DNA of 39,586 nt from a virus. The notes under the pieces are model-generated. The model was not told the DNA's origin. It made no database searches and saw only the letters and a list, made by a program, of their open reading frames with translations. The stretch covers positions 1 to 39,586 of the IMG/VR virus record IMGVR_UViG_3300037483_000555; one strand, 5' to 3'. Both the position numbers and the translations under genes were made by a program. This document shows, piece after piece, positions 17,819 through 36,801 of this stretch (positions are counted from its first letter, which is position 1; every line of letters starts with the position of its first letter).

Positions 17819-18040
17819 TCATCGCTTGGTCTCCTGCGGCGCATCCACCGCGCGGCGCACCCTCACCGTCTCCTGCTCCAGGGCGACCCGGTAGCGGCTA
17901 GGGTCCCGGTCGTTGTCGACGACCCTCCGCGAGCCGTACACCTCGCCAATGGACCGGATCCGGCGCGCGACGCGGCGGGCCTCCACGATGTTCTCGGCCT
18001 CGATCGTGTACTCGGCCACCAGGATCGCGGTGTATCTCAT
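17819..18040 (-). CDS. Hypothetical protein
   Basis: 73 aa from the internal ATG, preceded by GGAGACCAAGCG. ATGA overlaps at both ends. Confidence 0.45.
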   Translation of the reverse strand: MRYTAILVAEYTIEAENIVEARRVARRIRSIGEVYGSRRVVDNDRDPSRYRVALEQETVRVRRAVDAPQETKR

Positions 18041-18240
18041 CGCTTGGTCTCCCGAGGGGAGCGGCGACGCGACCACACGCGACCGCGCTTCGGCCAGAAG
18101 GGCCCGTCACAGCCGCGCGGTACGTGCCGCTCCGGGCGCTGGAGGATGTCGAGCAGGGTCCACAGCCGGGACTCGAGCACGGCCACCCGGCGGCGGAGGC
18201 GCGCGACGTCCATCTCTTCGACGATGGCTGCGCGGATCAT
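18037..18240 (-). CDS. Hypothetical protein
   Basis: 67 aa from the internal ATG, preceded by GAGGACGCG. ATGA overlaps at both ends. Confidence 0.45.
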   Translation of the reverse strand: MIRAAIVEEMDVARLRRRVAVLESRLWTLLDILQRPERHVPRGCDGPFWPKRGRVWSRRRSPRETKR

Positions 18241-18473
18241 CGCGTCCTCGACCTGGGGGAGGGAGAGGGGCAGCGCGACTCGGACGCCTCCTTGAGCCGT
18301 CGCAGCGCTCGGCAGACCGGGCAGTCCGGGTCTCGACGGAGGCCGGGGGGCGGGGCCTCGCATCCTACGCGCTCGGTTGCGGTCGCGACGCCTTCGAGGG
18401 CGATCAGGTACTCGCGCTCGCGGGCGCTCAACATGCGCCAGTTGCCGTCATCGGGCCTCGTCCTAGTTGTCAT
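18237..18473 (-). CDS. Hypothetical small Cys-containing protein
   Basis: 78 aa. AGGGGAGG lies before the ATG. Contains a CPVC motif. Confidence 0.45.
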   Translation of the reverse strand: MTTRTRPDDGNWRMLSAREREYLIALEGVATATERVGCEAPPPGLRRDPDCPVCRALRRLKEASESRCPSPSPRSRTR

Positions 18474-18754
18474 CGCCTCCCCTTTCTCCCGGTCCGGCCC
18501 GGGGAGAGACGGGCCAGCGCGCGGTCGAGCGCGCGTAGCATCTCCCAGTCACCGCCGTTGACGAGCAGATCGCCGGGCGACTCCGGGTCCTCGTAGACCA
18601 GTTTGCGCGCCGCCCTCACCGCCGCGAGCAGCGACCGGAGCTCTCGCCGGGCCGCGTCCCACTCATCCCGCGTGACGCCCCAGTCCACTGGGGCTAGGGA
18701 GGCGATGCGGACCAGTGCCGGCGCGATCGTCGGCTTGCTCACAGGCACCCCCAC
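18470..18754 (-). CDS. Hypothetical protein
   Basis: 94 aa, GTG start, high GC3. Confidence 0.4.
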   Translation of the reverse strand: MGVPVSKPTIAPALVRIASLAPVDWGVTRDEWDAARRELRSLLAAVRAARKLVYEDPESPGDLLVNGGDWEMLRALDRALARLSPGRTGRKGRR

Positions 18755-18806
18755 GCGATGACGAGGTCCCGGATCAGGTCGCGGATGAATCGGACGAGCG
18801 CGGCGA

Positions 18807-19103
18807 TCATTGCGCGGCCCTCCAGTCGTTATGGAGGCGCACGAAGAACTGCGGCGACACGCCGAACGCGCGCCCCAGCTTCCCGGCCAATTCGTCGTCC
18901 ATCACAATGTTGCGCTCGCGGCGGCAAGCCAGGAACATATCCACACACAGGTGGTTGATGCCGTAGTCGGACGCGGGCCCCATGCGCCGGGCCACGTCCT
19001 CAACCGTCCAGCCTCGGGCCCGCATCTCCTCCTCGATCACGTCGGCGCACGGCGAGGAATCGGGCTGCTCCAGCGGGAGGCCGAGGTCGCGCAGGTTCGT
19101 CAC
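18807..19103 (-). CDS. HigA-family (XRE-type) HTH protein
   Basis: 98 aa from GTG 19103 (GGGAGG upstream, GTGA overlap). CADVIEEEMRARGWTVEDVARRMG...ELAGKLGRAFGVSPQFFVRLHNDW parallels the HigA antitoxin layout (...fG.SpefWlnLQ..yd). Confidence 0.55.
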   Translation of the reverse strand: MTNLRDLGLPLEQPDSSPCADVIEEEMRARGWTVEDVARRMGPASDYGINHLCVDMFLACRRERNIVMDDELAGKLGRAFGVSPQFFVRLHNDWRAAQ

Positions 19104-19558
19104 GTCGCGCCTCCCTTCTCCGGCTCGGGAGCGGACGAGACCGGCGTCCCTGCGGGCTGTGGGGTGGGCCAGAGGTGGCGGGTGACGTCCTCCACCCCGT
19201 AGAACTCGGGCTCCTGGTGCGTCTCCTTGAGCCACGCCGCGAACACAGCATTCAGGCGGTCGCTCAGGTCGGCGGCCTCGGCCCCCTCCTCTGAGTCCGC
19301 GGGCGGGTACTCGTAGCCGGCCAGCCACTCCTCGGCCGCCTCGCCAGCCTCTTCTGTCGCTTCTTCGCGCAGGTGCTCGATCAGGCTATACACGTTGATC
19401 CGCGCGACGAACGGCACGCAGCGCCCGACATAGAACGTGCTTCCGGGCCCGAGCATGCCGTCCAGTTCGAGCGGGGCACCGGAGATAGCCTCCTCCTTGC
19501 TGGCGTAGCTGCCGTAGAATGCCTCTTCCGTCCCCACGCACCATCGGTCAGGCTTCAT
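19100..19558 (-). CDS. Highly acidic hypothetical protein
   Basis: 152 aa from ATG 19558. Only this C-terminal part of the 685-aa track ORF is consistent with neighbouring genes. Contains long Glu/Asp/Ala runs such as EEATEEAGEAAEEWLAGYEYPPADSEEGAEAADL. Confidence 0.45.
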   Translation of the reverse strand: MKPDRWCVGTEEAFYGSYASKEEAISGAPLELDGMLGPGSTFYVGRCVPFVARINVYSLIEHLREEATEEAGEAAEEWLAGYEYPPADSEEGAEAADLSDRLNAVFAAWLKETHQEPEFYGVEDVTRHLWPTPQPAGTPVSSAPEPEKGGAT

Positions 19559-20141
19559 GCGGCTCCTCCTCCTCCTTCGTCGGGGTGGGCGCTGCCGGGG
19601 AGCAGACGTGCTCGCGGTTTCCGCCGTTCCACTCGTCGTCGCCCCACTCGGCGCGGCACCGGATGCAAACCCACGATCCGCCGCAACAGAAGTCGCACGG
19701 GTGTGCGCGCTCGGCGTTGTGACGGAAGCCGATCGTCTCGTCGCCAGCGAGGTCGAGGCCCTCCTTCTCGGCCCATGCGCGGTCAGCGTCCCCCGGAGCG
19801 GCGGCCGGAGCCGGGGACTCCTGAGAAAGGGCGGCGCGAACCTTATCGAGCGCTTCGGAGTCCGTGCGGCCCTCGCCCTTTGCGCAGTGGTTACCTTGCG
19901 TGAAAAGCCAGAACGTGTGCGCCTCGCCGCCCTGCCGGTAGTCGTTGTGGATCGCGACCACCCAGCCGGCGGCGCGCAGATCATCAGGGAGCGCCTCCCG
20001 CAGCGCCCTCTCCCTCTCTTCGGACCGGGCCAGGGCGGCGCGGAGGCCCGCCAGTAGTCGATCCTTGCCGGGGGCAGGTCGGCAGCCGCAGAACGTGCAT
20101 GGGCATCCGTGGTGACACGTGCAGGTGCATGTCTCATCCAT
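19548..20141 (-). CDS. Cys-cluster protein, unknown function
   Basis: 197 aa from ATG 20141 (GGAGACGACA upstream). N-terminal CTCTCHHGCPCTFCGC and C-terminal HPCDFCCGGSWVCIRC clusters flank a globular core containing AIHNDYRQGGEAHTFWLF. Confidence 0.5.
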   Translation of the reverse strand: MDETCTCTCHHGCPCTFCGCRPAPGKDRLLAGLRAALARSEERERALREALPDDLRAAGWVVAIHNDYRQGGEAHTFWLFTQGNHCAKGEGRTDSEALDKVRAALSQESPAPAAAPGDADRAWAEKEGLDLAGDETIGFRHNAERAHPCDFCCGGSWVCIRCRAEWGDDEWNGGNREHVCSPAAPTPTKEEEEPHEA

Positions 20142-21003
20142 TGTCGTCTCCGGGAGCGGCGGGTGGAGGGTCCATCGGCGCATGACACATGCAGTTCGGA
20201 TCGCCAGCCGGACAGCGCGGGGCGACAGGGGCGGAGGAGAGCAGGCGCACCAGCACCTTGCGTGCCGTGGTGCGCACTAGCCAGTCGTCTCGCTCGGCGC
20301 CCCGCAGCGTCAGCCCCTCCAATCCGGCCACTTCCGTGAACACGACGCGCCGCAGGACGCGGCACGCCTCCTCGATCGTCGCCCCGCGCGCCTCGCTCAG
20401 CTCGCGGCGCAGGCGCTCCTCGACAACCACCAGGCCGTCGCGCGCAGCGGCGCGTTCCCGGGCAGCCTGTAGCGCCTCGTCCCGCTCCCGGCGCAGGGAT
20501 GCGGCGGCGTCCTTGGCGGCCAGATAGTCCTGATCCTTTTCGGCGATGATGCCGGCGAGCTCTGCGATCTGCTCGTGGGCCTCGTCCCGCTCCCGTCCCA
20601 GCTCCTCCTCTCGGGAGAGGGAGGCCCGCATCGAGTCGCACATGCGGTCGTACTCTCGCCGCGCCGACATGGACCTCCAGTGATCGCGAGCGTCGGGCGT
20701 CTCCTCGCCGTGGCTCTCGCGCACAAGCAGGGCCAGCGCATGGATGATCTGACCGTCCACTTCCGGGATCCGCGGGAAGGCCGGGCGCCTCGCCGGCCGC
20801 TCGGAGTTTGCGCCGAGTTTGACCTCGGCCTCCACGGCGGGCGCGCTCGGCGAGGGCTCGAACCACGCGGTCGGCGAGAACCACACGCACGCGGTCGCGG
20901 TGTGCCGGCAGATAGCCCCCGCGTTCTCTTCGACACGGCGGCCGGTAGCGGTCAGGAGACCGTAGGCGCCGCATGCGCACGTCTGTGTGACGGCGGTTGT
21001 CAT
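20134..21003 (-). CDS. Coiled-coil protein with terminal Cys motifs
   Basis: 289 aa from ATG 21003 (AGGAGACCCG upstream, ATGA overlap). Long Glu/Arg/Ala heptad-like centre. Confidence 0.5.
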   Translation of the reverse strand: MTTAVTQTCACGAYGLLTATGRRVEENAGAICRHTATACVWFSPTAWFEPSPSAPAVEAEVKLGANSERPARRPAFPRIPEVDGQIIHALALLVRESHGEETPDARDHWRSMSARREYDRMCDSMRASLSREEELGRERDEAHEQIAELAGIIAEKDQDYLAAKDAAASLRRERDEALQAARERAAARDGLVVVEERLRRELSEARGATIEEACRVLRRVVFTEVAGLEGLTLRGAERDDWLVRTTARKVLVRLLSSAPVAPRCPAGDPNCMCHAPMDPPPAAPGDDNG

Positions 21004-21377
21004 CGGGTCTCCTGTCCAAGGGCAGCGCGGGCGCGCGCGGCGTGAATGGCGCACTTGAAGGTGGCGCTGACCATCGGTCCGCCCGGGATGCACTCGCCGC
21101 ACGCGTGATCCCAGAGCAGGCCCTCGGGGTAGGGGCGGAACACGGCCGGATCGCCACGCTCGATGTCGTAGCCTCGGTGTCTCCGTACTTGGCTTTCGGC
21201 CTCCATGAGGACCCATCGGTCGGCCAGTTCCAGCGCCCGCTCTGCGGCTGAGAGGCGGTCGAGGAGCGTCATCACCGTCAGGCCGGCTGGCGTCTCGCCC
21301 AGGGCTACCGCCATCCTCTTCGCCTCCATCACTTCGGGGTCCACCGGGGCCGCTCTATCGTCGGTTCGCTCGCTCAT
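21000..21377 (-). CDS. Hypothetical protein
   Basis: 125 aa from ATG 21377. ATGA overlaps on both sides. Confidence 0.45.
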   Translation of the reverse strand: MSERTDDRAAPVDPEVMEAKRMAVALGETPAGLTVMTLLDRLSAAERALELADRWVLMEAESQVRRHRGYDIERGDPAVFRPYPEGLLWDHACGECIPGGPMVSATFKCAIHAARARAALGQETR

Positions 21378-21805
21378 GTCTCTCGCCTCCCCTCCGCCTC
21401 GCGGGACTCCGCCCATTCCGGAGCCGCCTCCGCCCACGTCCGATCGTTCTCGTAGACGCGGACGTTCACGAGTTGGAAAGCCATCGTGGATTCGCGTCGC
21501 ATGAAGCGGAGCGCCTCACACAAGTACGCCACGATGTTCTCTACGGTCGGCTGCGCCAACACAGCCTCCGCGCCGCCGTGCTCCGCGAGCTCGTTCAGGT
21601 ATCGATGGTCGAGGCGCGCGATCACGGGGCCCATGCAGACATCCAGATCACCCGTGTCGATGACGAGTCCGTTCCCGAGTGGCCCGGCGACCGTGATCTC
21701 TACCGCGTAGGTGTGGCCATGCAAGCGGCTGCACCTGTGGCGCTCCCCGAGGCCAATGAGCCGATGCGCCGCTGAGAACGTATACCTGCGAGTCAACCTG
21801 ATCAC
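21374..21805 (-). CDS. queD: 6-carboxy-5,6,7,8-tetrahydropterin synthase (QueD / PTPS family)
   Basis: YTFSAAHRL...CSRLHGHTYAVEITV...GLVIDTGDL is the QueD/PTPS signature (Cys plus His-Gly-His). GTG 21805 follows GGGAGGG. GTGA overlap with the upstream gene. Confidence 0.75.
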   Translation of the reverse strand: MIRLTRRYTFSAAHRLIGLGERHRCSRLHGHTYAVEITVAGPLGNGLVIDTGDLDVCMGPVIARLDHRYLNELAEHGGAEAVLAQPTVENIVAYLCEALRFMRRESTMAFQLVNVRVYENDRTWAEAAPEWAESREAEGRRET

Positions 21806-22542
21806 GCAACCCTCCCAAAGAGCCCTTGCTGAACAGGGCGCCCGATCCATCTCTCGGCGCTCTGTTGAAACTCGATGCGCTCCGCCAGTACGAGAGCTCG
21901 CACCGCCTTGCTCGGCGGCTGGTAGGCCCCCGACCACGCCGCATCGATCCCGATGTTCCGCGCTATGTTCGTGCTGTCCGCGCTGGCGAACGGCAGCCGC
22001 GCGAAGAGTTCGGCGTCCAGCATCCGGAGTCCGTGCAGTTTCACCCGCGGGCGACCCTCCTCGTCACACACGACGCGCATGGCCTCATTCATCCGGGACC
22101 ACCAGGCGACCGACCCGGGATCCGAGTAGGCGCCCGAGCTGCCGAAGGCGACGCGCGGCCAGTCGGCGGCGAGACGCGCGAGGCGGTCCATGCTCTCGTG
22201 CAGGTGCCACACCGGAACGCCGAAGCGGCCATGCGGCCACTCCGTAAGCAGGGCGTCGTTCGCGGCCTCGTCGCCATCGATCACGTCGGGCACGATCGCG
22301 AAGTCGCAGGCGGGGTGCCGCAGAAGATCGCCAACCCACTCGTAGTACGGCGCCCAATCCGCGATCGGTTTGCCGCTGCGCCACGCACCGAAGGCCCCGT
22401 TGTCGAGGGCGAAGGACTGGCACAGCGAGGCGGCGATCCCGATCTGCCGCGAGTCGGACCACGACACGAACGCGTGCCGCCCGCGCAGCACCTCGGCTGC
22501 GACGCTCTCTGGCGTGATCGGCGTGCCGTGGAACGGAATCAC
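21802..22542 (-). CDS. TGT-fold, DpdA-like DNA (7-deazaguanine) transglycosylase candidate
   Basis: 246 aa from GTG 22542 (GAGG upstream, GTGA overlap). LDNGAF, VPDVIDG, LHGLRM and SADSTN are spaced like the DSGGF / D / G / D-containing strands of TGT/DpdA TIM barrels. Adjacent to queD. Confidence 0.45.
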   Translation of the reverse strand: MIPFHGTPITPESVAAEVLRGRHAFVSWSDSRQIGIAASLCQSFALDNGAFGAWRSGKPIADWAPYYEWVGDLLRHPACDFAIVPDVIDGDEAANDALLTEWPHGRFGVPVWHLHESMDRLARLAADWPRVAFGSSGAYSDPGSVAWWSRMNEAMRVVCDEEGRPRVKLHGLRMLDAELFARLPFASADSTNIARNIGIDAAWSGAYQPPSKAVRALVLAERIEFQQSAERWIGRPVQQGLFGRVA

Positions 22543-22991
22543 CGCGATGCCTCGCGGGACTCCGCGCGGCGCATGTCCTCGACCTTCGCCAGTCGGCGCG
22601 ACAGCACTCTCGCGGCCTCGGGCATCCCGCGCTCCACGCAATAAGCAGCCAGGCTGCGCAGCGTGGGCGGACACCCGGCGTGGACGCTGACGGCGCTCCG
22701 TTCGTCGTGGTGCGCGAAACAGAGCATCACCACGCACTCCAAGCGATCGGCCCGGAGGATATGGTGCATGTGCAGCAAATCCCGGGATCCGCACTCGACA
22801 CACTTGCGCCCGTCCCGCTCCATCGCCAGCGCCCGAAGCTCGGAGCGGCTCAGCCCCGGTTCCTGCGCCTTGGTCCGCCCCTCCCTCGGGATGCGCCGGG
22901 GCTTCCGGAGGAGACGCTTGGCCGGCTCCGAGATGCGCGGCGGCGCATGCTCGGCGGCCCAGGTCGCAACCGCTTTCAGATCTCGGTTCAT
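22539..22991 (-). CDS. HNH endonuclease
   Basis: CVECGSRDLLHMHHILRADRLECVVMLCFAHHDE gives a Cys pair plus an H-N-H-type histidine arrangement. GAGGA lies before the ATG. Confidence 0.7.
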   Translation of the reverse strand: MNRDLKAVATWAAEHAPPRISEPAKRLLRKPRRIPREGRTKAQEPGLSRSELRALAMERDGRKCVECGSRDLLHMHHILRADRLECVVMLCFAHHDERSAVSVHAGCPPTLRSLAAYCVERGMPEAARVLSRRLAKVEDMRRAESREASR

Positions 22992-23091
22992 CGCATCCTC
23001 AGGTGAATCCCCGCCACCCGGCTCACCGCCCGACTCCGAGACAGGGGGAGGGCTCGGGCGAGCGATGCGGCCGGGCGGCGGGAAGGGGGGG

Positions 23092-24105
23092 TCAGAAGGA
23101 CAGTCCCGCGTCGGCCTGTTTCATGGCCTCCTGGAAGAGCATCACGTCGGCGTCGGTGAGTTGCCCGGCGCTATCCTTCTTCGTGACGTTCTTGATCTCG
23201 GCGTGGATGTCCTCCTTCGACATGCCCATTTGCGCGCCAATGGCCAGGATGCGCTGATAGGCGGAGGCGGTCTGCTCAGGCCCGGCGGTCCCACTCTTCG
23301 CGTTCGCGCGCCTGCCGATCTCCGCATCGATGGCGGCGAGCTGGGCCTGGGTCTTCGCGTGATACTTGGACTTCTCGGGGTCCTTGAGGTCGCGGTCGAA
23401 GGCGCCGCGATACCACTTGAGGTCCTCGTCCGTGAGCTCGGGTATCGTCTTCCCTTTGGCTCGCCCGAACTTGATCTCGCCGAGCGAGGCGTCGGCCGAG
23501 GAGCCCCCGCCCTTCGAGCCGCTGCGGTAGCTGACCTGCTGGGTCTCGCCGCGCCTGATGCCCAGGGACTCGAGGCGCTCCCACGTGAGGTTCCGCACAC
23601 CCAGGAGCCTCGTCACCGCGTTCACGAGCATGTTGCTGTACGCGGCCTTCATGATGTTCCCCTCGTCGATCTCCGAGAGGGGCCGCCCCTCCTTCGTCTC
23701 CGTGCCGAGGAAGGTGTCGCGCGAGGAGCACGTCCCGATGGCGCGCATGGAGTCCCAGCCGCCGGGCAGCGTGGCCGTGCACTCGTAGAGCCACAGATAG
23801 TACGTTCCCTTGTCGTCGGCGCTGACGATCTTCTCCTTGGCCAGGTCCGAGACCGCTACGGCGCAGCGGCGCGCCATGACCTCGGCGGCCGGCGCGGTCG
23901 GCCAAGGCTTGTCGCCCTGGGAGACCCACTGCCCCGCGTGCGTGGAGCGGATCGCCACCTCCAGCACGCGCTCGAGGAGCTTGTTCCGTTGCTCGATGAT
24001 GACCAACGGGTCGATGTCCGGCCGGGTGATAGAGCCTTCGGGCCGCACCTCCACGGTGCGCGCCGAGGCCGGGATAACGTCGGTGTTCCGTCCTGTGGTT
24101 GCCAT
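23092..24105 (-). CDS. Single-strand annealing / recombination protein (ERF- or Rad52-like, putative)
   Basis: 337 aa from ATG 24105 (GGAGAAACC upstream). MKAAYSNMLVNAVTRLLGV recalls the ERF ...SSYARKYCLNGLFGI segment. Paired with an exonuclease immediately upstream. Confidence 0.45.
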   Translation of the reverse strand: MATTGRNTDVIPASARTVEVRPEGSITRPDIDPLVIIEQRNKLLERVLEVAIRSTHAGQWVSQGDKPWPTAPAAEVMARRCAVAVSDLAKEKIVSADDKGTYYLWLYECTATLPGGWDSMRAIGTCSSRDTFLGTETKEGRPLSEIDEGNIMKAAYSNMLVNAVTRLLGVRNLTWERLESLGIRRGETQQVSYRSGSKGGGSSADASLGEIKFGRAKGKTIPELTDEDLKWYRGAFDRDLKDPEKSKYHAKTQAQLAAIDAEIGRRANAKSGTAGPEQTASAYQRILAIGAQMGMSKEDIHAEIKNVTKKDSAGQLTDADVMLFQEAMKQADAGLSF

Positions 24106-24122
24106 GGTTTCTCCGGGCCGGC

Positions 24123-25097
24123 TCACTGCGCCGCGCTCCGAGGGGTTGCGACGTACGTGCGCTGCCAGTACGACGTTGCCTTCATCTGAAACGCCTTCTT
24201 CTCCACGTGCTTCGCCTTCACGAGGTAATCCCCGACCATCACTTCCTCGGCCTCTGGAAGCATCGTCTTGAGGCGCTTGTCGATGCTCTCGATCTCGCTC
24301 TTGGCGGGCGCCAGTTCCTGCCGGCGCGCGATGAGCGCCATCGCTTCCGCGTCATCAAAGAAGCGCACCCCTGGCCCCATGGCTCGGTTCGGCATGCAGA
24401 CGTGCGCGAAGGCGCACTTGCCGCACTCGTCGGACTCGGACCGGGGAAGGGGCTCGTTCGCCTTCACCGCATCCCGGATGCGCTCGGCCTTGGCCAGCAA
24501 GGCGTCGATGTGCGGCTGGTCTCGCGGGCAGTCGATGAACTGGATCTGCCCCGACGTCTTGTTCATGAGGGCGAAGACGCCTGCGGGCGCGTCGTCGAAG
24601 TGGATGTACAGCTGGAGTTGGGAGTAGTACTTGCGGATCCACTTCTGCGGGCAGTCGCGGATGTCGCCGATGGTCTCGATCTTGTCCGCCGAGTACGGGT
24701 TCAGGCCCTTGATCTCGAGGGGCAGCGGGCGCGGCCAACCCGTCATGCGGATCTTGGCGTCGGCGTGGCCGGTGAGTTCCCGGTCCCGATCGTGGTAGTC
24801 GCGCTCACGCTGGACGATGTCGCAACCCATGGCCTCGAGTTCGCGGACTATGTAGCGCTCCAGATTGTTGCCGAGGTCGAAGATGGCCTGGAGCTCGGGC
24901 GGGTGCGGCTGGCGCAGTTCACCGGCCGTGCGCTCGTAGAACAGGAAGCGCTCGCACTCGTGGCCGATGGAGGACGCTCGGGAGGTGTGCGCCGCCGAGA
25001 CGCGGACGCGGGACTTCTTGAGGTCCCAGAAACGCTCCCGGAGCTGCTCGGCCGGGGAGAGCGCCGCCGGCATCGCTTCCTGTGTGGTCGCTTCCAT
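24123..25097 (-). CDS. PD-(D/E)XK exonuclease, Cas4/RecB-like with a 4-Cys cluster
   Basis: GHADAKI ... LPLEIKG (D ... ExK), YSQLQLY (QxxxY), and one N-terminal Cys (GHECERF) plus C-terminal CGKCAFAHVC (C-x2-C-x5-C). Confidence 0.7.
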   Translation of the reverse strand: MEATTQEAMPAALSPAEQLRERFWDLKKSRVRVSAAHTSRASSIGHECERFLFYERTAGELRQPHPPELQAIFDLGNNLERYIVRELEAMGCDIVQRERDYHDRDRELTGHADAKIRMTGWPRPLPLEIKGLNPYSADKIETIGDIRDCPQKWIRKYYSQLQLYIHFDDAPAGVFALMNKTSGQIQFIDCPRDQPHIDALLAKAERIRDAVKANEPLPRSESDECGKCAFAHVCMPNRAMGPGVRFFDDAEAMALIARRQELAPAKSEIESIDKRLKTMLPEAEEVMVGDYLVKAKHVEKKAFQMKATSYWQRTYVATPRSAAQ

Positions 25098-25120
25098 GGT
25101 GTTCCCCTGTTCGTAAAGTG

Positions 25121-25157
25121 CGGTCGGGCCAGAGATAGGAACCGGGCGGCCCGACCG
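25121..25157 (-). terminator. GC-rich hairpin in an intergenic gap (attenuator or terminator candidate)
   Basis: cggtcgggcc (25121-25130) pairs perfectly with ggcccgaccg (25148-25157). It lies in the 96-bp gap between two minus-strand genes. No clear U-tract follows. Confidence 0.2.
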
Positions 25158-25193
25158 TCCTGCTGCCAGCTCATTCTGGCGAGCAGGGCAAGA

Positions 25194-25592
25194 TCAGAAC
25201 TGGCAGTCTGCCTCCGCTTCCGCCCTGAGCAGGCAGGACGGGGCGAGGTGCTGGCCCCCGCAGCTCCCGCAGTCCACGAGCAGGGGGAGCGGGGAGCGCG
25301 GCGGGGGCGCCACAGCGTGGAGGCCGAGATCCTTGGCCGGCCCGGAGAGGAAGAAATCGGGGCCGTACCTGGTGAGGTTGTCGCGGCTCATCGCGAGGTT
25401 GGCGGCCTCCATGCCCGCCCAGTCGCCAGCGAGCGAGGCCCGCAGCCACGCGGCGAAAAAGCGGCGGCCAGGGTCCCCTTCGGCATCCAGCAGCGAGAGC
25501 TCGGCGGCCTCCTCTATGCGCTGCGCCGCCTGGCGGGCATCCCGCGCCGCCTCGTATCGCTGCCGCAGCTCCTCGATCGTAGCCATGGTCAC
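25194..25592 (-). CDS. Hypothetical protein
   Basis: 132 aa. GTG 25592 (GTGA overlap) or ATG 25586 as the start. Confidence 0.45.
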   Translation of the reverse strand: MTMATIEELRQRYEAARDARQAAQRIEEAAELSLLDAEGDPGRRFFAAWLRASLAGDWAGMEAANLAMSRDNLTRYGPDFFLSGPAKDLGLHAVAPPPRSPLPLLVDCGSCGGQHLAPSCLLRAEAEADCQF

Positions 25593-25921
25593 CGCTCCCC
25601 TCGGAGCTCGTGCGCCTCGTCGCGCAGCCGGTCCCGCTCGTCATCCGCGTGAGCTGCTGCTGCGTCCTCTTCGGCCTCCCCTGCCTGCTCGATCGCCGCG
25701 TCGCGGATGGACGCCAACTCCGCGCGGGTGAGCTCGTCGGTGACACGCAGGATCGAGCCGCTCGCCGAGCGGATCTCCACGACCTCCGCGCTCGGCGGGC
25801 AACCGGGGCTCCATCCGCCGGGGCCGCCGATGCTGCGGTTGTAGTGGTCGGGGCTGCCCGGCTCGATCTCCACGTCGATCTCCACGTCCAGTTCAATGGT
25901 GCGCATGACCGTGACCAGCAT
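25589..25921 (-). CDS. Hypothetical acidic protein
   Basis: 110 aa. GAGGAGGAG lies 4 nt before the ATG. Confidence 0.45.
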   Translation of the reverse strand: MLVTVMRTIELDVEIDVEIEPGSPDHYNRSIGGPGGWSPGCPPSAEVVEIRSASGSILRVTDELTRAELASIRDAAIEQAGEAEEDAAAAHADDERDRLRDEAHELRGER

Positions 25922-26090
25922 GTGTCTCCTCCTCCACCTTCGCGACCAGGTCCTCTCCCTCGTACCCGCAGACGTGCGCCGCCATCACCGCCTCTGAGCT
26001 CGTTTGGCGACGCGTGCTGAATGACCAGCGGCTCCCGTCCGAGCCCTTGCCCTCGAGATGCCACAGGGGCCCGCGCTCGGAGCGCGTCAC
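25893..26090 (-). CDS. Hypothetical small protein with a His-rich C-terminus
   Basis: 65 aa from GTG 26090 (GTGA overlap). Ends ...ETHAGHGHAHH. It is the in-frame 3' part of track ORF 25893..26345. Confidence 0.3.
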   Translation of the reverse strand: MTRSERGPLWHLEGKGSDGSRWSFSTRRQTSSEAVMAAHVCGYEGEDLVAKVEEETHAGHGHAHH

Positions 26091-26194
26091 GGCCGCCCCC
26101 TGCGCACCGTCACGTGCTCTGGCTCTCCGAGGGTGGCGATCGGGGCGAGGAGCGCAAGCAACGACGCGGCGGCGGCGAGGAGGGCGACGATCAT
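26087..26194 (-). CDS. Small hydrophobic peptide (single TM)
   Basis: 35 aa, MIVALLAAAASLLALLAPIATLGE... GGGAGG lies before the ATG and there is an ATGA overlap. Below the track length cutoff. Confidence 0.3.
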   Translation of the reverse strand: MIVALLAAAASLLALLAPIATLGEPEHVTVRRGRP

Positions 26195-26508
26195 GGCGCC
26201 CTCCCGGTTGCCTTCGCGATCGCGGCGTGGGCGGCGCAGGTGATGCACCCCTCAACACCGTCGCAGTCGCACGGGTCAGGGACCACCGCTCGCAGCGCCT
26301 CGAGCATCTCAGGCGCGGCGGCGAACAGGGCCGCGATGCCCTCATAGCCGGGACGCCGATGGACAGTCGCGATGATGGTTGTGTCGTCGCGAGCCAGGAT
26401 ACTCACCGGCTCCAAGCCGCCCAGCATCTTGCTCGCCGAGTACGGCGGCCGGGCGTCCGGCGTGAAGGTCTCCACCTCCAGAAAGCGTGGCTTCGCCTTG
26501 TCGCTCAC
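26191..26508 (-). CDS. Hypothetical protein with a C-terminal Cys cluster
   Basis: 105 aa, GTG start with GTGA overlap. Contains CDCDGVEGCITC. Confidence 0.45.
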   Translation of the reverse strand: MSDKAKPRFLEVETFTPDARPPYSASKMLGGLEPVSILARDDTTIIATVHRRPGYEGIAALFAAAPEMLEALRAVVPDPCDCDGVEGCITCAAHAAIAKATGRAP

Positions 26509-26669
26509 GGCGACACCGTCTCTCTCCGCTCCGCCAGCGTGACCACGTAGCCGAGCGACCGCAGCGCGGAGAGGACCGCCCCCCGCGTGCCCCTCCAGTA
26601 CAGCGGCCCGGTCCTCAGGTCGATGCGGAAGTGGCCTGGGCGGATCTCGGTGATGACTGCGGTTTTCAT
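26505..26669 (-). CDS. Hypothetical small protein
   Basis: 54 aa, MKTAVITEIRPGHFRIDLRTGPLYW... ATGA overlap upstream and GTGA downstream. Not in the track. Confidence 0.35.
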   Translation of the reverse strand: MKTAVITEIRPGHFRIDLRTGPLYWRGTRGAVLSALRSLGYVVTLAERRETVSP

Positions 26670-27202
26670 GGCGCCGCCTCGACCTTCACCGGCTCGGCCT
26701 TCGGTTCCGGGCGCCGCATCGTGAAGCAGACCGGCATCAGGTAGCCTTCGCCCTCGGACTCCTCCACGCGCACTCGGATCGGGTCGATGGTCGCCTGCCC
26801 CGCATCGACACGGAACGTCAGGATCACCTGGGGCTTATTCGGCTCCGCGCCGAGCGCCTTGGCGATGGCGAGCAGGAACCGCGCATCGAGGCTCACAGAG
26901 GCGGTCCCTTCGGCGCCCTCCTCCGGCGCGTCCTTCACGGCCGGTCGCCAGTCAGGGAACTTGGCCTTGCCCCAGCGCTCGAGCTCGGATTCCCCGTCGC
27001 GCGCCAGAGTGAGCTGACCCCGGCTCTTGAAGCCGGACTCTTCGCCCTCCTTCTCCGGTTCGGCGGGAATCGCCACGAGCATCCGGCCATCGGTGGCGAT
27101 GACCTTCCGCTCGCCCGCGTCGAAGTAGGGTTCCGACAGGTTGTACCGGGTGTCGTCCGTGGAGACGCACAGCTCCGGTCTGTAGCGTTTGTCCATCTTC
27201 AT
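26666..27202 (-). CDS. DnaN (beta sliding clamp)-like protein, about half normal length
   Basis: 178 aa. VIATDGRMLVAIP, AKFPDWRPAV and the terminal EGYLMPVCF parallel E. coli DnaN ATDGHRLAV, GRFPDYRRVLP and AAYVVMPMRL, in the same order. Confidence 0.45.
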   Translation of the reverse strand: MKMDKRYRPELCVSTDDTRYNLSEPYFDAGERKVIATDGRMLVAIPAEPEKEGEESGFKSRGQLTLARDGESELERWGKAKFPDWRPAVKDAPEEGAEGTASVSLDARFLLAIAKALGAEPNKPQVILTFRVDAGQATIDPIRVRVEESEGEGYLMPVCFTMRRPEPKAEPVKVEAAP

Positions 27203-27235
27203 GGTGCGTCTCCCCTGTCCTGCGCTGTCCGTCCG

Positions 27236-27541
27236 CTACGACCGCGACCACGACCCCGACCGCGACCACGACCGCGACCACGACCGCGACCACGACCGCG
27301 ACCACGACCGCGACCACGACCGCGACCACGACCACGACCACGACCGCGACCGCGACCCCGACCCCGACCGCGACAGCGACCGCGACCGCGACCCCGACCG
27401 CGACCCCGACCCCGACCGCGACCCCGACCCCGACCGCGACCACGACCACGACCGCGACCCCGACCCCGACCGCGACCCCGACCCCGACCGCGACCACGAC
27501 AGCTCGTAGCCGAGGCGGAGCACCGCTGCGCTCGCGGCCAT
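27236..27541 (-). CDS. Candidate low-complexity Ser/Arg/Gly/Trp repeat protein (frame uncertain)
   Basis: The ATG lies 1 nt after the upstream stop, and the ORF ends 33 nt before the next start. GC3 is 100 percent. A competing (GR)n frame ending at 27199 cannot be excluded. Confidence 0.3.
   Translation of the reverse strand: MAASAAVLRLGYELSWSRSGSGSRSGSGSRSWSWSRSGSGSRSGSGSRSGSRSRSLSRSGSGSRSRSWSWSWSRSWSRSWSRSWSRSWSRSWSRSGSWSRS
27240..27503. repeat. 44 tandem hexamers GACCNC (N = G, A or C; two units are GACAGC)
   Basis: Read directly. Units are in register from 27240 to 27503. There is a (GACCGC GACCAC)n block and (GACCCC GACCCC GACCGC)n blocks. Confidence 0.95.
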
Positions 27542-27542
27542 C

Positions 27543-27836
27543 TCAGATCACCAGGCGCGGGAGGCTGTGCGGCCACGGCGCGACATCGACGACAGCGCCA
27601 ATCGCCACCAGGCACGAGCCCGGGTAGGGCTCCACCTCGGAGAGCTTGCCGGTCCTGAGCGCCTCGGCGAAACGGCCGGTGTCAGCCACCCACGCGGCGT
27701 CCTCGAGCGCGATCCACCGCTCCGACTCGCCCGCAACGCGGCCCGTGAAGTAGTGGGTGACGGTGCGGATGATGACGTTCTCGCCGACCGGGATACCTGT
27801 GAAGCCATTCGCCTTCGCCGTCCTCTTCGCCGCCAT
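27543..27836 (-). CDS. Hypothetical protein, first gene of the early-left operon
   Basis: 97 aa from ATG 27836, preceded by AGGGGAGG. The track start at 27989 lies in low-GC3 leader sequence. Confidence 0.5.
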   Translation of the reverse strand: MAAKRTAKANGFTGIPVGENVIIRTVTHYFTGRVAGESERWIALEDAAWVADTGRFAEALRTGKLSEVEPYPGSCLVAIGAVVDVAPWPHSLPRLVI

Positions 27837-27973
27837 GCGTCCTCCCCTTGAGTTGCGTTCGCCTGCGCTGTCCGTCTCCTGCTCATCCCGCCGCGGCGCG
27901 GGCCTTCCCGGTTGTGGGATCGGGTTGGTTGGGCCCGGTCCGCCCCGCTGCTTGATGAGCGATGCATCCAACG

Positions 27974-28014
27974 TTGGGGAGCCTACCAAGCTTTCCGTTT
28001 GGGCGCAAGCCCAA
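27974..28014 (-). promoter_or_regulatory. PL-like promoter with two TTGG-N8-CCAA operator boxes
   Basis: On the minus strand, TTGCGC (28008-28003), 17 nt, then TAGGCT (27985-27980). Boxes at 27974-27989 and 27999-28014. Near-identical copy at 28700-28740. Confidence 0.45.
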
Positions 28015-30897: not shown

Positions 30898-31143
30898 ATG
30901 CCGTCCATTTGTCCATCCCGCCCCCTCTCCAGCGCGCAGCTCCTCGAGCTCGCGTCGCTCGTCTCCTTCACCGGCGCCAGCTACCGGGCGATCGCACTGA
31001 CCATGGGGCTAAGAAGCCACGAGTGTGTGTGCTGGATCTGCGGGGGCGTCCAACCCCTCGGCTGTAGCGGCGTGTGCCGCGGGGGGCCTTCTATCGAGGA
31101 GCGCGGCGCCGAGCGCGCGAGGATCAGGGGGAGCGTCCGGTGA
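30898..31143 (+). CDS. Hypothetical small HTH-like, Cys-rich protein
   Basis: 81 aa, high GC3, GTGA overlap with the methyltransferase start. Confidence 0.4.
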   Translation: MPSICPSRPLSSAQLLELASLVSFTGASYRAIALTMGLRSHECVCWICGGVQPLGCSGVCRGGPSIEERGAERARIRGSVR

Positions 31144-31910
31144 GCGACCACGTGGTTCACCTCGGAGACTGCCTCGACCCCGTGACTGGGCTCGCGTCGC
31201 TGCCGGACAAGAGCGTGGACCACTGCCTGACCGACCCGCCATACGAGGCCGAGGCGCACACGCTGCAGCGGCGGGTGAAGCGATCCACGGGAACACAGGA
31301 TGGTGGGGCGTTTTTCAACCATGATGATCGTGTGGTCAAGCTGGACGCCCTCTCGTTCGAGCCCCTCTCGTTCGAGGTCCGCGTTGAGGCGGCGCGCCAG
31401 ATCGCCCGCGTGACGCGGCGCTGGTGTGTCGCCTTCTGCCAGGTTGAGGCGGCGATGGCGTGGCGTGAGGCGCTGGTGTCGGCCGGGATGAGCTACCGGC
31501 GGACGGGTGTGTGGGTGAAGCCGGACGGCATGCCCCAGTACAGCGGTGATCGACCGGGGATGGGGTACGAGTCGCTGGTCATCTGCCACGCCCCGGGCCG
31601 CTCTTCTTGGAATGGGGGTGGGCGCCCGGGGGTGTGGGTGTTCAACAAGATGGGCCCCGAGGATCGGAAGCGCACCGGACACGAGACCCAAAAGCCTATT
31701 GCGTTAATGGAGGCGCTAGTACGTGACTTCACGGACGAGGGCGACACAATACTCGACCCCTTCGCCGGCAGCGGCACAACCATGATGGCGGCGAAACGCC
31801 TGGGGCGCAAGGCGATCGGCTGGGAGCGCGACCCCAGGTATCACGCAATCGCGGCCAAACGGATTACTACAGCGCGCGAACAATACGGACTTTGGGTGGG
31901 TGGCGCATGA
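31140..31910 (+). CDS. DNA methyltransferase (N6-adenine/N4-cytosine family, beta-type motif order)
   Basis: 256 aa from GTG 31140. Catalytic LTDPPYEAE comes first and SAM-binding ILDPFAGSGTTMMAAKRLGRKAIGWE comes near the C-terminus. Confidence 0.8.
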   Translation: MSDHVVHLGDCLDPVTGLASLPDKSVDHCLTDPPYEAEAHTLQRRVKRSTGTQDGGAFFNHDDRVVKLDALSFEPLSFEVRVEAARQIARVTRRWCVAFCQVEAAMAWREALVSAGMSYRRTGVWVKPDGMPQYSGDRPGMGYESLVICHAPGRSSWNGGGRPGVWVFNKMGPEDRKRTGHETQKPIALMEALVRDFTDEGDTILDPFAGSGTTMMAAKRLGRKAIGWERDPRYHAIAAKRITTAREQYGLWVGGA

Positions 31911-32391: not shown

Positions 32392-33503
32392 TGGCGCGCC
32401 CCGGCCTTCTCCGGAACCGGAAGTTCGTCCGCATGGAGCGGATGAAGGGCATGACCAAGGCGATCGCCCTCGGCTCGCTGGAGCTCATCTGGAGCGCCGC
32501 CTACGAGACCGGCGAGGACTTGGTGGGGACCGCCGAGGACGTCGAGTTGGCAGCCGACTGGCGGGGCGAGCCGGGACTCCTCTTCGCCGCTCTTCGGGAC
32601 GCCGGACTACCCGGCCCTGGCTTCATTGAGGAGGCTCCGGAGCGGCCCCGCATGTGGCGCATCCATGACCTCTACGACCACGCTCCAGACTACGTACAGC
32701 GCCGCATGGAGCGGGAAGCCGAGCGTCTAGCGAAGGGCCGAACGATCTCGGACATCCGCTCCGAGGCGGCTAAGGCCAGGTGGAACAAAGAGAAAGATGC
32801 AAACGGATGCAAGCGTCCGCCACTTGCTGACCCGCAGGATGCAAAGGTGCTCACTCCCGCTCCCGCTCCCGCTCCCAAAGAAGAAGCACTTGTCTCCGAA
32901 GCTCCCGCTTCGGGCGACGCATGGGGGCGGGTGAGCGAGCTTTGGGGCAGCGTGTGCGTCCCCGCCGGGTTCGCCAAGGCTCGCGGGACGCCGCTGCAGA
33001 AGAAGGCAGCCCAAGCCCGCATGCGCGAGGGTGGCTGGTTCGAGGCCTTCGCTGCGGCCTGTAGGCACGCGGCCGGGGATCCCTTCTACCGCGGCGGCGG
33101 CAAGACGGGTTGGGTGATGGACCTTGGGTGGCTCTTGAAGCCTGGGAACACCGAGAAGACAGCCGATCGCGCAACGACACGGAGAGCGAATGGACACACG
33201 TCCCAGCACGACGCCGAACTACTCCGGGCGCTCGCAGAAGCCGAACGAGACGCCTCAAGTCCCGAGCCTCCAACCAGCGACAGCGGCGATGGAGGAGGGC
33301 TTCGAAGCTCTCCGCCGCTCGACCCGGTTGAAGACGATGTGGCCACGAATGGAAAGCCTCTGTCCGCCGCGGTCCGAGCGCTTATGGTTCATCGGTGGCC
33401 AGCCGGGAAACTTCAAGACGCAACTCATGTGGAACCTCGCGCTGTCACTGGCAGAACGCCGACACCGGGTGCTTTTCGTTTCCCTGGAACAGACGACGGG
33501 TGA
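32391..33503 (+). CDS. Replication-associated protein (initiator or helicase-loader-like); 3' end uncertain
   Basis: Start ATG shares one base with the upstream stop (TGATG). The C-terminal region ...FYRGGGKTGWVMDLGWLLKPGNTEKT resembles phage replication/DnaD-associated C-terminal modules. The coding signal in this frame fades near 33190, where the next gene begins. Confidence 0.4.
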   Translation: MARPGLLRNRKFVRMERMKGMTKAIALGSLELIWSAAYETGEDLVGTAEDVELAADWRGEPGLLFAALRDAGLPGPGFIEEAPERPRMWRIHDLYDHAPDYVQRRMEREAERLAKGRTISDIRSEAAKARWNKEKDANGCKRPPLADPQDAKVLTPAPAPAPKEEALVSEAPASGDAWGRVSELWGSVCVPAGFAKARGTPLQKKAAQARMREGGWFEAFAAACRHAAGDPFYRGGGKTGWVMDLGWLLKPGNTEKTADRATTRRANGHTSQHDAELLRALAEAERDASSPEPPTSDSGDGGGLRSSPPLDPVEDDVATNGKPLSAAVRALMVHRWPAGKLQDATHVEPRAVTGRTPTPGAFRFPGTDDG

Positions 33504-34170
33504 GATGGCCGTGGGCGCCGTCGCCAGGTACTCGCGCATTCCACTCGGCGTGCTGGAGCGGGCGCAGAGCGGCGAGACGCGCCTAACCGAGTCGCAGCAC
33601 GTAGGGCTCGCCACGGCATCGCAGCGAATGGCCGAGACGGAGTTGTTCCTGCGGCTCCATGGCGCAGACCAGCACGGGCGCGGACTCGAGGACGTGATCC
33701 GAAGCGCTACCCGCTCCAACTTCGATGCCGTGTTCATCGACCACATCGGCATGATCGGCCGGGATGACGGCAACGAGCTCGAGCAGCTCTCCGCCGCGAT
33801 CGACAGGCTGCGCCGGCTGGCTAGGGGGTCGGTCGTGAAGGGCTACACCCCGTTCGTCTGCGCCACGACGCCGCTCAAGCGCGATGCCGCCACTGGTGAC
33901 GAGGAGAAGCTGCCGGCCATCACCGACTTTCGCGGCTCGAGCCGCCTCGAGTACGACGCCGACGTTGCGATCATCCTGCGGCGGCGCGCGCGCAAGGGCG
34001 AGGAGGAGAGCGGCGAGCCGACGCTCGTCGACGGGTTCGTACTCAAGAACCGGCAAGGCCCCTGCCCGGCGGTGCTGCAATTCGAAGCGCAAGGGGCGAT
34101 CTGTTTCGTGAACGAGCACCACAAGCCGGAGCCGCAACCACCCCGGCACTGGCAGGAGAACGACCGATGA
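33190..34170 (+). CDS. DnaB-like (RecA-fold) replicative helicase ATPase domain protein
   Basis: IGGQPGNFKTQLMWNLA (Walker A-like), AVFIDHIGMI (Walker B-like) and LKNRQGP. GGAGAG lies 3 nt before ATG 33190. High GC3 from the start. Confidence 0.65.
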   Translation: MDTRPSTTPNYSGRSQKPNETPQVPSLQPATAAMEEGFEALRRSTRLKTMWPRMESLCPPRSERLWFIGGQPGNFKTQLMWNLALSLAERRHRVLFVSLEQTTGEMAVGAVARYSRIPLGVLERAQSGETRLTESQHVGLATASQRMAETELFLRLHGADQHGRGLEDVIRSATRSNFDAVFIDHIGMIGRDDGNELEQLSAAIDRLRRLARGSVVKGYTPFVCATTPLKRDAATGDEEKLPAITDFRGSSRLEYDADVAIILRRRARKGEEESGEPTLVDGFVLKNRQGPCPAVLQFEAQGAICFVNEHHKPEPQPPRHWQENDR

Positions 34171-35211: not shown

Positions 35212-35575
35212 GAGCAGCGCACCATCAGCGAAAAAGCGTCGCGGCCCAGGCCGACCGTTCCAGGCTGGCCAAAGCGGCAACCCCGGCGGTCGCCCCAAGG
35301 GCATTGCCGAGCGCGTAAAGGCGCTGGTGGGTAAGGACGGGCGCAAAGCCATCGAGATCCTGTGGGACATCGCATCAGGCAAGCTCACCATCACAGCCTA
35401 CGCGGACGGCAAGCCATACGATGCTGAGCCGTCGTTCAAAGACCGACGAGAGGCCGCCATAGCTCTGCTGGACCGCGGGTTCGGTAAACCGGCGCAACCG
35501 CTGACAGGGGAAGACGGCGGGCCGATCGCGGTGACAGCGATCGAGCGCGTGATCGTCGACCCTGCGAAAACATGA
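35204..35575 (+). CDS. terS: Terminase small subunit
   Basis: KKRRGPGRPFQAGQSGNPGGRPKG N-terminus is typical of the DUF5681-type small terminase. Directly upstream of terL. The track TTG start at 35165 is less likely. Confidence 0.6.
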   Translation: MAESSAPSAKKRRGPGRPFQAGQSGNPGGRPKGIAERVKALVGKDGRKAIEILWDIASGKLTITAYADGKPYDAEPSFKDRREAAIALLDRGFGKPAQPLTGEDGGPIAVTAIERVIVDPAKT

Positions 35576-36801
35576 GCACCCTGCGCATCCAAACTCCGCG
35601 GGCGTTCGCTCCGCTCCTCGAGCCGGCCAGGTACAAGGGGCTACACGGTGGGCGCGGATCCGGGAAGAGCCACTTCTTCGCGGAATCGCTGGTAGAGCGC
35701 TGCCTGATGCAGCGTGGAACCCGCTGGGCCTGCATCCGTGAGGTGCAGAAGTCGCTGGAACAGTCAGTGAAGCGGCTCCTGGAGGACAAGCTCGAGTCGA
35801 TGGGCGTGGGTCCGTCGTTCGAGGTCCAGAAGTTCGAGATCGGCACACCCGGAGGCGGGGTGGTCATCTTCCAGGGCATGCAGAACCACACCGCCGACAG
35901 CATTAAAAGCCTGGAAGGATTCGACGGTGCGTGGGTGGAGGAGGCGCAGAGCCTTTCGCAGCGCTCGCTCGACCTCCTGCGGCCCACGATCCGCAAGGAA
36001 GGCTCCGAGATGTGGTTCTCATGGAACCCGCGCCATGAGACCGACCCGATCGACAAGCTCCTGCGCGGCGAGCACGCGCCGCCTGGCGCCGTCGTCGTGG
36101 AGGCCAACTACGGCGACAACCCGTGGCTGCCGGACGTGCTGCGGCAGGAAATGGAGTACGACCAGCGGCGCGACCCGGACAAGTTTGCCCACGTGTGGAA
36201 GGGCGGATATGTGCGCGCGAGCGAGGCGCGTGTCTTCCGTAACTGGCGCGTGGAGGAGTTCGACATCCCCGCCGACGCGATCATTCGGCAGGGCGCGGAC
36301 TGGGGCTTCGCCGTCGATCCAGCGGTGCTCGTCCAGTGCTACACGATCGGTCGCACGCTCTATGTGCCGTACGAAGCGTGGATGATCGGATGTCAGATCG
36401 ACAACCTGCCGGACCTGTTCGCCACGGTGCCGGGCTCGGCCCGGTGGTGGATCACCGCCGACTCGGCCCGGCCCGAGACAATCGCGCACATGCAGCGCCA
36501 CGGATACCCGAAGCTTGGCCCTGCGGTGAAGGGCGCCCGCAGCGTCGAGGAGGGGATCGAGTTCCTGCAGTCCTATGACATCGTCGTGCACCCGCGGTGT
36601 CGGCACACGATCGACGAGCTCACGCTCTACAGCTACGAGACCGACCCACTCACGGGCGCCGTGATGCCGAAGCTCAAGGACAAGTACAATCACGTGATCG
36701 ACTCGCTGCGCTACGCCTGCGAGGGCGCGCGCCGGGCCGTGAAGCCGGGTGTGGTCGCGGTTTCGCGGCAGCCTCGCGCTCCCACGGGATGGATGGCTTG
36801 A
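35572..36801 (+). CDS. terL: Terminase large subunit (PBSX/Terminase_3-like)
   Basis: Walker A GGRGSGKS, ...AWVEEAQ... (Walker B/coupling region), and a C-terminal nuclease region with ...HVIDSLRYA. 409 aa. Confidence 0.85.
   Translation: MSTLRIQTPRAFAPLLEPARYKGLHGGRGSGKSHFFAESLVERCLMQRGTRWACIREVQKSLEQSVKRLLEDKLESMGVGPSFEVQKFEIGTPGGGVVIFQGMQNHTADSIKSLEGFDGAWVEEAQSLSQRSLDLLRPTIRKEGSEMWFSWNPRHETDPIDKLLRGEHAPPGAVVVEANYGDNPWLPDVLRQEMEYDQRRDPDKFAHVWKGGYVRASEARVFRNWRVEEFDIPADAIIRQGADWGFAVDPAVLVQCYTIGRTLYVPYEAWMIGCQIDNLPDLFATVPGSARWWITADSARPETIAHMQRHGYPKLGPAVKGARSVEEGIEFLQSYDIVVHPRCRHTIDELTLYSYETDPLTGAVMPKLKDKYNHVIDSLRYACEGARRAVKPGVVAVSRQPRAPTGWMA

Follow-up and report, generated by a model that had tools for sequence, protein, structure and literature searches.

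The eukaryotic Sm/LSm proteins SmB, SmD1, SmD3 and LSm4 carry basic, disordered, RG-rich C-terminal tails. Borg elements carry amino-acid tandem repeats (aaTRs), including those of Borg Sm ribonucleoproteins with repeat-encoded disordered extensions (PMC9879509), and the early phage T4 proteins GoF, MotB.1 and Frd.2 have an LSm-like fold and a suspected RNA-related role (PMC12152347). Here we describe a locus in the IMG/VR virus record IMGVR_UViG_3300037483_000555, all 39,586 nucleotides of which were analysed and are called the window below. At this locus, a 264-bp array of GACCNC hexamers lies directly downstream of a gene for a predicted Sm/LSm-like small β-barrel. We consider it nearly certain that the array is the body of a second gene, for a tail protein of alternating x-Ser dipeptides (x being chiefly Trp, Arg or Gly), and that the two genes form a module.

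Repeat-encoded disordered regions and Sm-like phage proteins are known kinds, while the conserved split arrangement, the x-Ser design with NGG-only x codons and the family's size seem to be new here. Literature searches on hexanucleotide repeats of phages, on disordered phage proteins rich in Trp and Arg, on Sm-like proteins of phages and on the peptide strings themselves found no description of the module. The original prediction for this DNA, that no phage function has been described for such an array, still stands against the literature, Pfam, PHROG, NCBIfam and PADLOC.

The hexamer array and its coding frame

The array (27240-27503) consists of exactly 44 in-register hexamers, as first described and now confirmed by direct count: 18 GACCGC, 12 GACCAC, 12 GACCCC and 2 GACAGC. 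Hexamer positions 1, 2, 3 and 6 are invariant across the 44 units, position 4 is C in 42 of 44 and A in 2, and position 5, the sole freely variable one, is G in 20, A in 12, C in 12 and never T. Tandem Repeats Finder reports periods of 12 and 18 with scores of 363 and 370, while other repeats of the window score at most 64, and a three-unit array pattern matches 38 times in the window versus 0 times in 100 dinucleotide-preserving shuffles. The array is genuine and not an assembly artefact, a concern raised at the outset: L154, an independent Joint Genome Institute (JGI) assembly of the same phage (sample 3300037424), carries it in the same internal order with one 12-bp block fewer. Megablast of the array region against GenBank phages gave no match.

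Assemblies L155-L157, of the same phage or close relatives, break inside the array. Likewise, three IMG/VR viral contigs (L006/L070, L037/L065 and L050/L067) have arrays at both ends, and many others end within an array. Evidently, assemblies break, or get circularised, at such repeats.

The array had been described as open in four reading frames. Four of the six frames do carry listed open reading frames (ORFs), but all six are free of stops inside the array, because GACCNC and GNGGTC, with the bases present, cannot form a stop codon; openness alone therefore cannot identify the coding frame. A search of IMG/VR for six consecutive GACCNC units gave, among the matches listed, at least 120 stretches with at least 140 arrays of 6-50 units (141 with the window's own), many of them at contig ends. 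For the approximately 70 arrays with sufficient flank, the open extent of the six frames was compared on both sides, and one frame only is consistent: the minus-strand NGG-TCG frame, which in the window runs 27541->27236. In most of these loci the frame meets a stop 0-3 codons past the last unit, as it does in 59 of 75 complete tails, and a conserved short peptide precedes the array. The comparison indicates that the array codes for protein in the minus frame 27541->27236; this frame, one of two for which the original prediction saw competing support, is preserved in relatives and the others are not.

The ORF in this frame (27236..27541, minus strand) agrees with its earlier description. It starts at ATG 27541-27539, 1 nt past the upstream stop at 27543-27545, comprises 101 codons, and ends at TAG 27238-27236, 33 nt before the ATG at 27202. 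Specifically, an N-terminal motif of 13 codons, MAASAAVLRLGYE (27503..27541), is followed by 88 repeat codons, 44 x NGG-TCG (27239..27502), which are the array shifted by one base. The tail protein thus consists of MAASAAVLRLGYE and 44 x-Ser dipeptides, in which x is Trp, Arg, Gly or, twice, Leu, with the stop directly after the array. The repeat reads LS WS RS GS ... RS and includes the sub-blocks (GS-GS-RS)n and (WS-RS)6. The leader peptide, also given as MAASAAVLRLGYELSWSRS, falls in the commonest leader class, M-N-A-A-[IVL]-x-R-x-G-[YF]-[DE].

The 101 residues of the tail protein include 45 Ser, 19 Arg, 13 Gly and 12 Trp, giving a net charge of +18 and an isoelectric point (pI) of 12; the family has a median net charge of +10 and a pI of 12. 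The tail is predicted to be disordered, since a single-sequence AlphaFold model shows no secondary structure and a mean predicted local distance difference test score (pLDDT) of 49.9. The tail protein has no PHROG, Pfam or PADLOC match, and a HMMER search for homologues, with composition filtering, scored none among 8,000 word-sharing candidates. NCBIfam gives the tail (27239-27541) far-sub-threshold compositional matches to the Ser-Asp repeats of staphylococcal ClfA, SdrC and SdrD, which are the nearest described x-Ser dipeptide repeat, and the Gly-Arg (GR) frame ORF has a sub-threshold compositional match to Pfam TrAA12. An exact look-up of the tail, antisense and GR products in a 15-billion-protein collection found none of them.

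Among the 44 leaders of a logo, 42 have Arg7 and all have Gly9, with all six Arg and all four Gly codons in use; synonymous codon spread at fixed residues argues for purifying selection on the amino acids of this frame. In the close relatives L156 and L157, CGG and CGA replace the window's CGC without changing the leader peptide, and the leader frame is preserved with spacers of 13 and 8 nt from the upstream stop versus 1 nt in the window (+12 and +7 nt). Among loci found through the partner gene, the Ser codon differs by lineage: mostly TCG, but TCA in L128, L129 and L149, AGC in L136 and L137, AGT in L131 and L143, and TCT in L130. Even the more degenerate TCT-type tail of L159/L160 still alternates x-Ser. 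TCN and AGY codons are not joined by single mutations, so the alternating x-Ser peptide is the conserved entity; these codon patterns indicate that selection acts on the alternating Ser-x peptide and not on the hexamer DNA. The locus is a microsatellite on which selection clearly acts through the peptide, in that the Ser codon family switches and the peptide is kept.

The same switching, with x-Ser kept, rules out the antisense D-[R/H/P] frame. It was in this antisense frame that the source gene caller had placed a 98-aa ORF on the array, at 3032-3328 in L154; in the window the antisense ORF is 27201-27509 (plus strand).

Comparison of L154 with the window shows how the tail changes. The flanks are identical and the unit order is the same, with 42 versus 44 units, one WS-RS 12-mer being missing from (WS-RS)6. 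Such differences indicate that, as the tail evolves, whole blocks of 6, 12 and 18 bp are gained and lost in frame, which shuffles its Trp, Arg and Gly units. The locus is therefore slippage-prone as originally proposed, the two assemblies differing by one 12-bp step, but the contingency switch proposed with it does not follow. With a unit of 6 nt, an observed change of 12 nt and an in-frame stop directly after the array in the complete tails counted above, the stop stays in frame and expression is never switched, which rules out a phase-variable locus.

Nor is position 5 a hypervariable site, as had been suggested; its variation reflects three unit types shuffled by duplication and deletion. 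Per array, the Arg codon is CGG only in 56 cases and AGG only in 13, a single minor unit occurs in 7, and none is truly mixed. Arrays thus use CGG or AGG and practically never both, ruling out a mutational hotspot at the variable base. The lack of free CGG/AGG mixture also argues against random replacement at one site, and a diversity-generating retroelement is rejected on this ground and because the window has one array only. PHROG and Pfam scans of about 30 larger window ORFs, a subset of the total, found no reverse transcriptase. Over all modules, the codon census for x is TGG 626, GGG 606, CGG 536 and AGG 162, and for Ser TCG 1853, TCA 88, AGC 68, AGT 42 and TCT 26. At the x position, the codons are confined to NGG.

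The partner gene and the two-gene module

The original prediction missed the gene directly upstream and the conserved N-terminal motif of the tail. This partner gene (27543..27836, minus strand) encodes a 97-aa protein, predicted from AlphaFold and Foldseek to be an Sm/LSm-like small β-barrel. At the gene junction (27539..27545, minus strand), the partner stop TGA (27545-27543) and the tail ATG (27541-27539) are separated by a 1-nt spacer. The conserved core of the partner reads RTVTHYFTGR...LEDAAWVADTGRF...EVEPYPG...GAVVD..W.H.LPR. All 251 homologues are annotated as 'hypothetical', none has a Pfam domain, and the partner belongs to no PHROG family. A profile search of 1.84 billion representatives gave 2010 clusters at 50% identity with E<=1e-3, 1477 of them with E<=1e-10, and all are environmental; among 50,697 GenBank phage records, the partner occurs only in the uncultured MW202573.1, and cultured phages have no copy of the module. 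Four partner-family proteins (P0134, P0135, P0137 and P0140) have two partner domains.

The AlphaFold model of the partner (pLDDT 91.9) is a small β-barrel with a helix inserted between strands 3 and 4. Nearly all of its top 50 Foldseek matches in the PDB are Sm, LSm or Hfq proteins (E 1.5e-3 to 4e-2; target-normalised template modelling (TM) scores of 0.6-0.75), and some of the matched LSm domains had been solved with docked peptides (6f9w, 6am0 and 4n0a); matches in BFVD are uncharacterised phage proteins, some of them labelled Sm-like or RNA-binding. As modelled, the partner is Sm-like in fold only.

The pairing of the two genes is seen from both sides. At approximately 65 pattern-derived loci, among the matches listed, a partner homologue lies directly upstream of the tail on the same strand. 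A search with the partner protein is blind to the hexamer, and so unbiased for array sequence. In GTDB genomes it found 32 loci, all on contigs of metagenome-assembled genomes (MAGs) binned to many phyla, many of the contigs being ~35-47 kb long. A leader-plus-repeat ORF lies directly downstream of the partner in 28 of the 32. Contigs L124 and L144 stop at the partner and within the leader, respectively, and the L153 match is marginal (E 1e-4), which leaves L138 as the single true negative. Among the genome loci found in this way, only L138, from a contig assigned to a Saccharimonadales MAG (partner gene at 731-1100), clearly lacks a tail. Over all loci examined, a tail ORF follows 88 of 97 partner genes. 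GenBank MW202573.1 has the same pair annotated (112 aa + 43 aa), the coding sequence after the partner, UOF78858.1, being MNAAIIRAGLDASWSWSWSWSRSRSWSWSGSRSGSRSRSGSGS and starting in an ATGA overlap.

The tail start lies at -4 nt from the partner stop (ATGA/GTGA) in 50 of 88 modules and within the range -7 to +11 nt in 77 of 88 (+1 in the window). This arrangement is typical of translational coupling, and the tail ORF is probably coupled to the partner in translation. A programmed frameshift fusing the two products is ruled out by their varying relative frame, with spacings of -4, -1, +1, +2 or +7 nt.

Complete tails have 5-44 units (median 27); the window's is the longest of them, and the incomplete L070 tail has 46. 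Position x is Arg in 34%, Trp in 30% and Gly in 30% over the modules (94% together). Further tail genes lie downstream in seven modules. At L013, L051, L062, L079, L106, L107, L125, L135, L139 and L143, a single partner is followed by two or three tail genes in tandem, all of which have leaders of their own.

Leader class tracks partner subfamily, as would fit physical contact between the two products. Specifically, all of the ~15 'IVYETG'-type partners have basic KQKY-type leaders, 'AAWVADTGRF'-type partners have R-x-G-[YF]-[DE] leaders, and a third group, 'ADSGRF...EVEPVG', has short hydrophobic leaders. No conserved neighbour other than the pair was found around the module loci; across varied early-region settings, then, the pair acts as a self-contained cassette. 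Judging by the loci recovered, the module occurs in very diverse uncultured phages.

Some (GACCNC)x6 matches are unrelated to the module (L045, L032, L058, L075, L020 and L109). Some of these encode RS/QS repeats at the start of a large acidic protein or, in the plus frame, Asp-x repeats within long ORFs; others lie on giant-virus MAG contigs.

Standard pipelines miss or mis-call the family, owing to HMMER filters, antisense gene calls and assemblies that break at the array. A workable annotation rule is to choose the x-Ser frame, beginning at the partner's stop.

Proposed function and its alternatives

For the function of the module we put forward an RNA-binding scaffold, by analogy with the tails of eukaryotic Sm/LSm proteins, the Borg Sm extensions and the T4 LSm-like early proteins; the proposal is tentative and, in our estimate, somewhat more apt to be wrong than right. 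The barrel partner, perhaps as an oligomer, would hold the tail protein by its short N-terminal motif, and the docked complex would present one or more long and flexible tails of strongly cationic and aromatic character (pI ~12). Early in infection, these tails would bind nucleic acid, with RNA the likeliest target. Such a device would be a split version of the Sm/LSm proteins that carry basic disordered extensions, and slippage would tune tail length and with it valency. For the combined reading, namely coding frame, module and a nucleic-acid-binding scaffold together, we see the balance as even.

More broadly, the pairing of a barrel with a disordered basic tail, known otherwise from the Sm proteins of eukaryotes and archaea, may be something that phages employ in split form. 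A bolder version, which we rate as rather unlikely, is that the module is an unrecognised, widespread two-component ribonucleoprotein-like device, in which an Sm-like barrel, possibly a ring as in the RNA-binding hexamers and heptamers of the Sm/LSm/Hfq superfamily, recruits a slippage-tunable Ser-(Trp/Arg/Gly) polymer in trans by way of the short N-terminal docking motif. This would yield a multivalent 'brush' that captures or condenses RNA of host or phage, or a host factor, early in infection; its tail length would be rapidly evolvable, and the NGG-only codons would be kept for repeat perfection, hence evolvability.

Several observations weigh against these readings. The partner model lacks the N-terminal helix that usually precedes the strongly bent, five-stranded barrel of the Sm fold, and it resembles Sm proteins in fold alone (Foldseek E ~1e-3, TM 0.5-0.75): no Pfam LSM or Hfq match is found for the window partner or 40 family members even at E<=1, nor does the partner-family profile match any PDB sequence at E<=10. 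The disorder call for the tail comes from one single-sequence AlphaFold run. Docking and nucleic-acid binding are what we infer by analogy, and the co-variation of leader and partner could be plain co-inheritance of adjacent genes. Furthermore, the silent positions of the tail are near-invariant (of the Gly codons, 606 are GGG versus 9 others; of the Arg codons, 698 are CGG or AGG versus 16 others), unlike those of the leaders of the same genes, which use all synonymous codons, and TCG dominates the tails even in genomes with a GC content of 36-47%. Protein-level selection does not explain this codon monotony, which could come from fast turnover, from selection for repeat perfection, or from an added RNA- or DNA-level constraint.

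The main rival, which we judge unlikely, takes the Trp/Arg-rich tail as a toxic or host-takeover effector, acting on membranes as Trp/Arg-rich antimicrobial peptides do, or through nucleoid condensation, and the barrel as its chaperone, neutraliser or targeting factor. A strongly basic, Trp-rich tail beside a mildly acidic partner core (median charge -2) would suit such a pair, as would the tight coupling of expression suggested by the junction spacing, the several loci with two or three tail genes per partner, and the movement of the module among unrelated genomic contexts in the manner of a moron. However, hydrophobic and amphipathic segments are absent from the tail, membrane-active peptides do not typically have Ser at every other position, and the module lies in the early/recombination region, not in a lysis cassette.

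It is quite improbable that the tail serves as a substrate or decoy, either as a precursor like those of ribosomally synthesised and post-translationally modified peptides, modified with the partner's help, or as a Trp 'hook' that titrates a host factor, in analogy to GW/WG Argonaute-binding motifs or to protease decoys. Module loci hold no modifying enzyme or other conserved neighbour, and the partner is small with a fold that is not enzyme-like, although the short conserved leader, the repetitive core and the tandem copies at some loci would be in keeping with the idea, as would Trp flanked by Ser or Gly in a disordered context. In the GW/WG 'Argonaute hook', Trp amid small residues in a disordered region binds Trp pockets of Argonaute or a related protein; the S-W-S beside G-S of the tail resembles this hook in sequence context.

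We regard it as very improbable that the array is an element acting at the DNA or RNA level, be it iterons, a protein-binding array, a G-rich structure or a recombination hotspot, and that it codes only incidentally. Extremely uniform silent third positions, with TCG and NGG kept in low-GC genomes, are what such an element might produce, but homologous modules replace TCG with TCA, TCT, AGC or AGT, crossing between TCN and AGY, while start, stop and leader peptide are conserved and degenerate arrays keep x-Ser. The iteron or protein-binding DNA array that the original prediction had offered is rejected on the same evidence, the hexamer being replaced while the peptide stays.

Finally, a translated (Gly-Arg)n product of frame 27615->27199, also entertained originally, is scarcely credible: the variable base is synonymous there, at the Arg wobble, and the ORF (27199-27615, minus strand) does have the GTG start and the ATGA overlap with the next gene first noted, but its GTG starts, the only ones, all lie inside the partner gene, relatives conserve no start, stop or flanking peptide in this frame, homologous AGC- and AGT-type arrays would read G-A or similar, and the leader frame survives the altered spacers of L156 and L157, so that the synonymous wobble is a coincidence. 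An RG/RGG-type protein is excluded with it, as the real frame always separates Arg and Gly by Ser.

Genomic context and comparison with known systems

The window (39.6 kb, 68% GC) is a contig of a temperate tailed phage, with gene calls by PHROG scans: a major head protein (236-1465), head closure (3844-5277), ejection proteins (7677-11047), an integrase (16313-17545), a Cas4-like exonuclease (24123-25097), a DNA methyltransferase (31074-31910), a DnaB-like helicase (33190-34170), the large terminase (35572-36801) and the portal (36597-38855). Analysis of GC content at third codon positions places the array in a minus-strand gene run (15580-27989) that diverges from plus-strand genes starting at ~28700, and across the divergence point a gene in an independent contig of the same phage carries HTH_31/HTH_3 domains. 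Given this divergence and the gene opposite, the 'early-left operon' placement made from the outset is a reasonable inference.

The 178-aa gene downstream of the tail (26666-27202, minus strand), earlier called 'clamp-like', has a weak partial match to PHROG 3007 ('RusA-like resolvase') and no Pfam match. It has no relatives in phages or IMG/VR and a single distant one among 5.8 billion proteins, and it is ruled out as a module member, not being kept beside the module elsewhere. Elsewhere in the gene run, ORF 21802-22803 (minus strand) strongly matches PHROG 887, queuine tRNA-ribosyltransferase (E 7e-68), and looks DpdA-like, which suggests that the phage DNA may carry a 7-deazaguanine derivative modification.

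Among described systems, contingency loci share with the array slippage-prone short repeats whose copy number differs between close genomes. Here, in contrast, the 6-nt unit changes tail length only, never frame or expression. Staphylococcal ClfA/Sdr proteins resemble the tail in having long x-Ser dipeptide repeats encoded by short DNA repeats of variable length, but their Ser-Asp repeats form acidic, extracellular stalks in large wall-anchored proteins, whereas the phage tail is basic, Trp-rich and intracellular and makes up almost the whole protein.

Closer likenesses lie with small β-barrels. Like the partner, the T4 LSm-like proteins are early, belong to no sequence family and owe their LSm-likeness to structure prediction only; however, they have no sequence relationship to the partner and no associated repeat-tail gene. 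With eukaryotic Sm/LSm proteins the module shares the combination of a small, bent β-barrel with an Arg/Gly-rich flexible tail, and the LSm domains that dock short peptides (PDB 6f9w, 6am0 and 4n0a) are a precedent for short linear motif binding. In contrast to those proteins, the partner has neither the Sm1/Sm2 sequence motifs nor the N-terminal helix, and the tail is provided in trans and alternates Ser and Trp.

The Borg aaTRs are alike in being perfect nucleotide repeats within ORFs, with a unit length divisible by 3, fast evolution, predicted disorder and a link to an Sm-type barrel. The phage tail, with a 6-nt unit in an ORF, 44 versus 42 units in two assemblies and disorder predicted in a single-sequence run, belongs with such repeat-encoded disordered regions. 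In Borgs, however, the Sm protein itself bears the repeat, as an N-terminal extension, and the repeats are of independent origin and varied in unit. In the phage module, the repeat is on a separate, probably translationally coupled polypeptide with a docking-like leader, and one x-Ser design is conserved across thousands of phage lineages.

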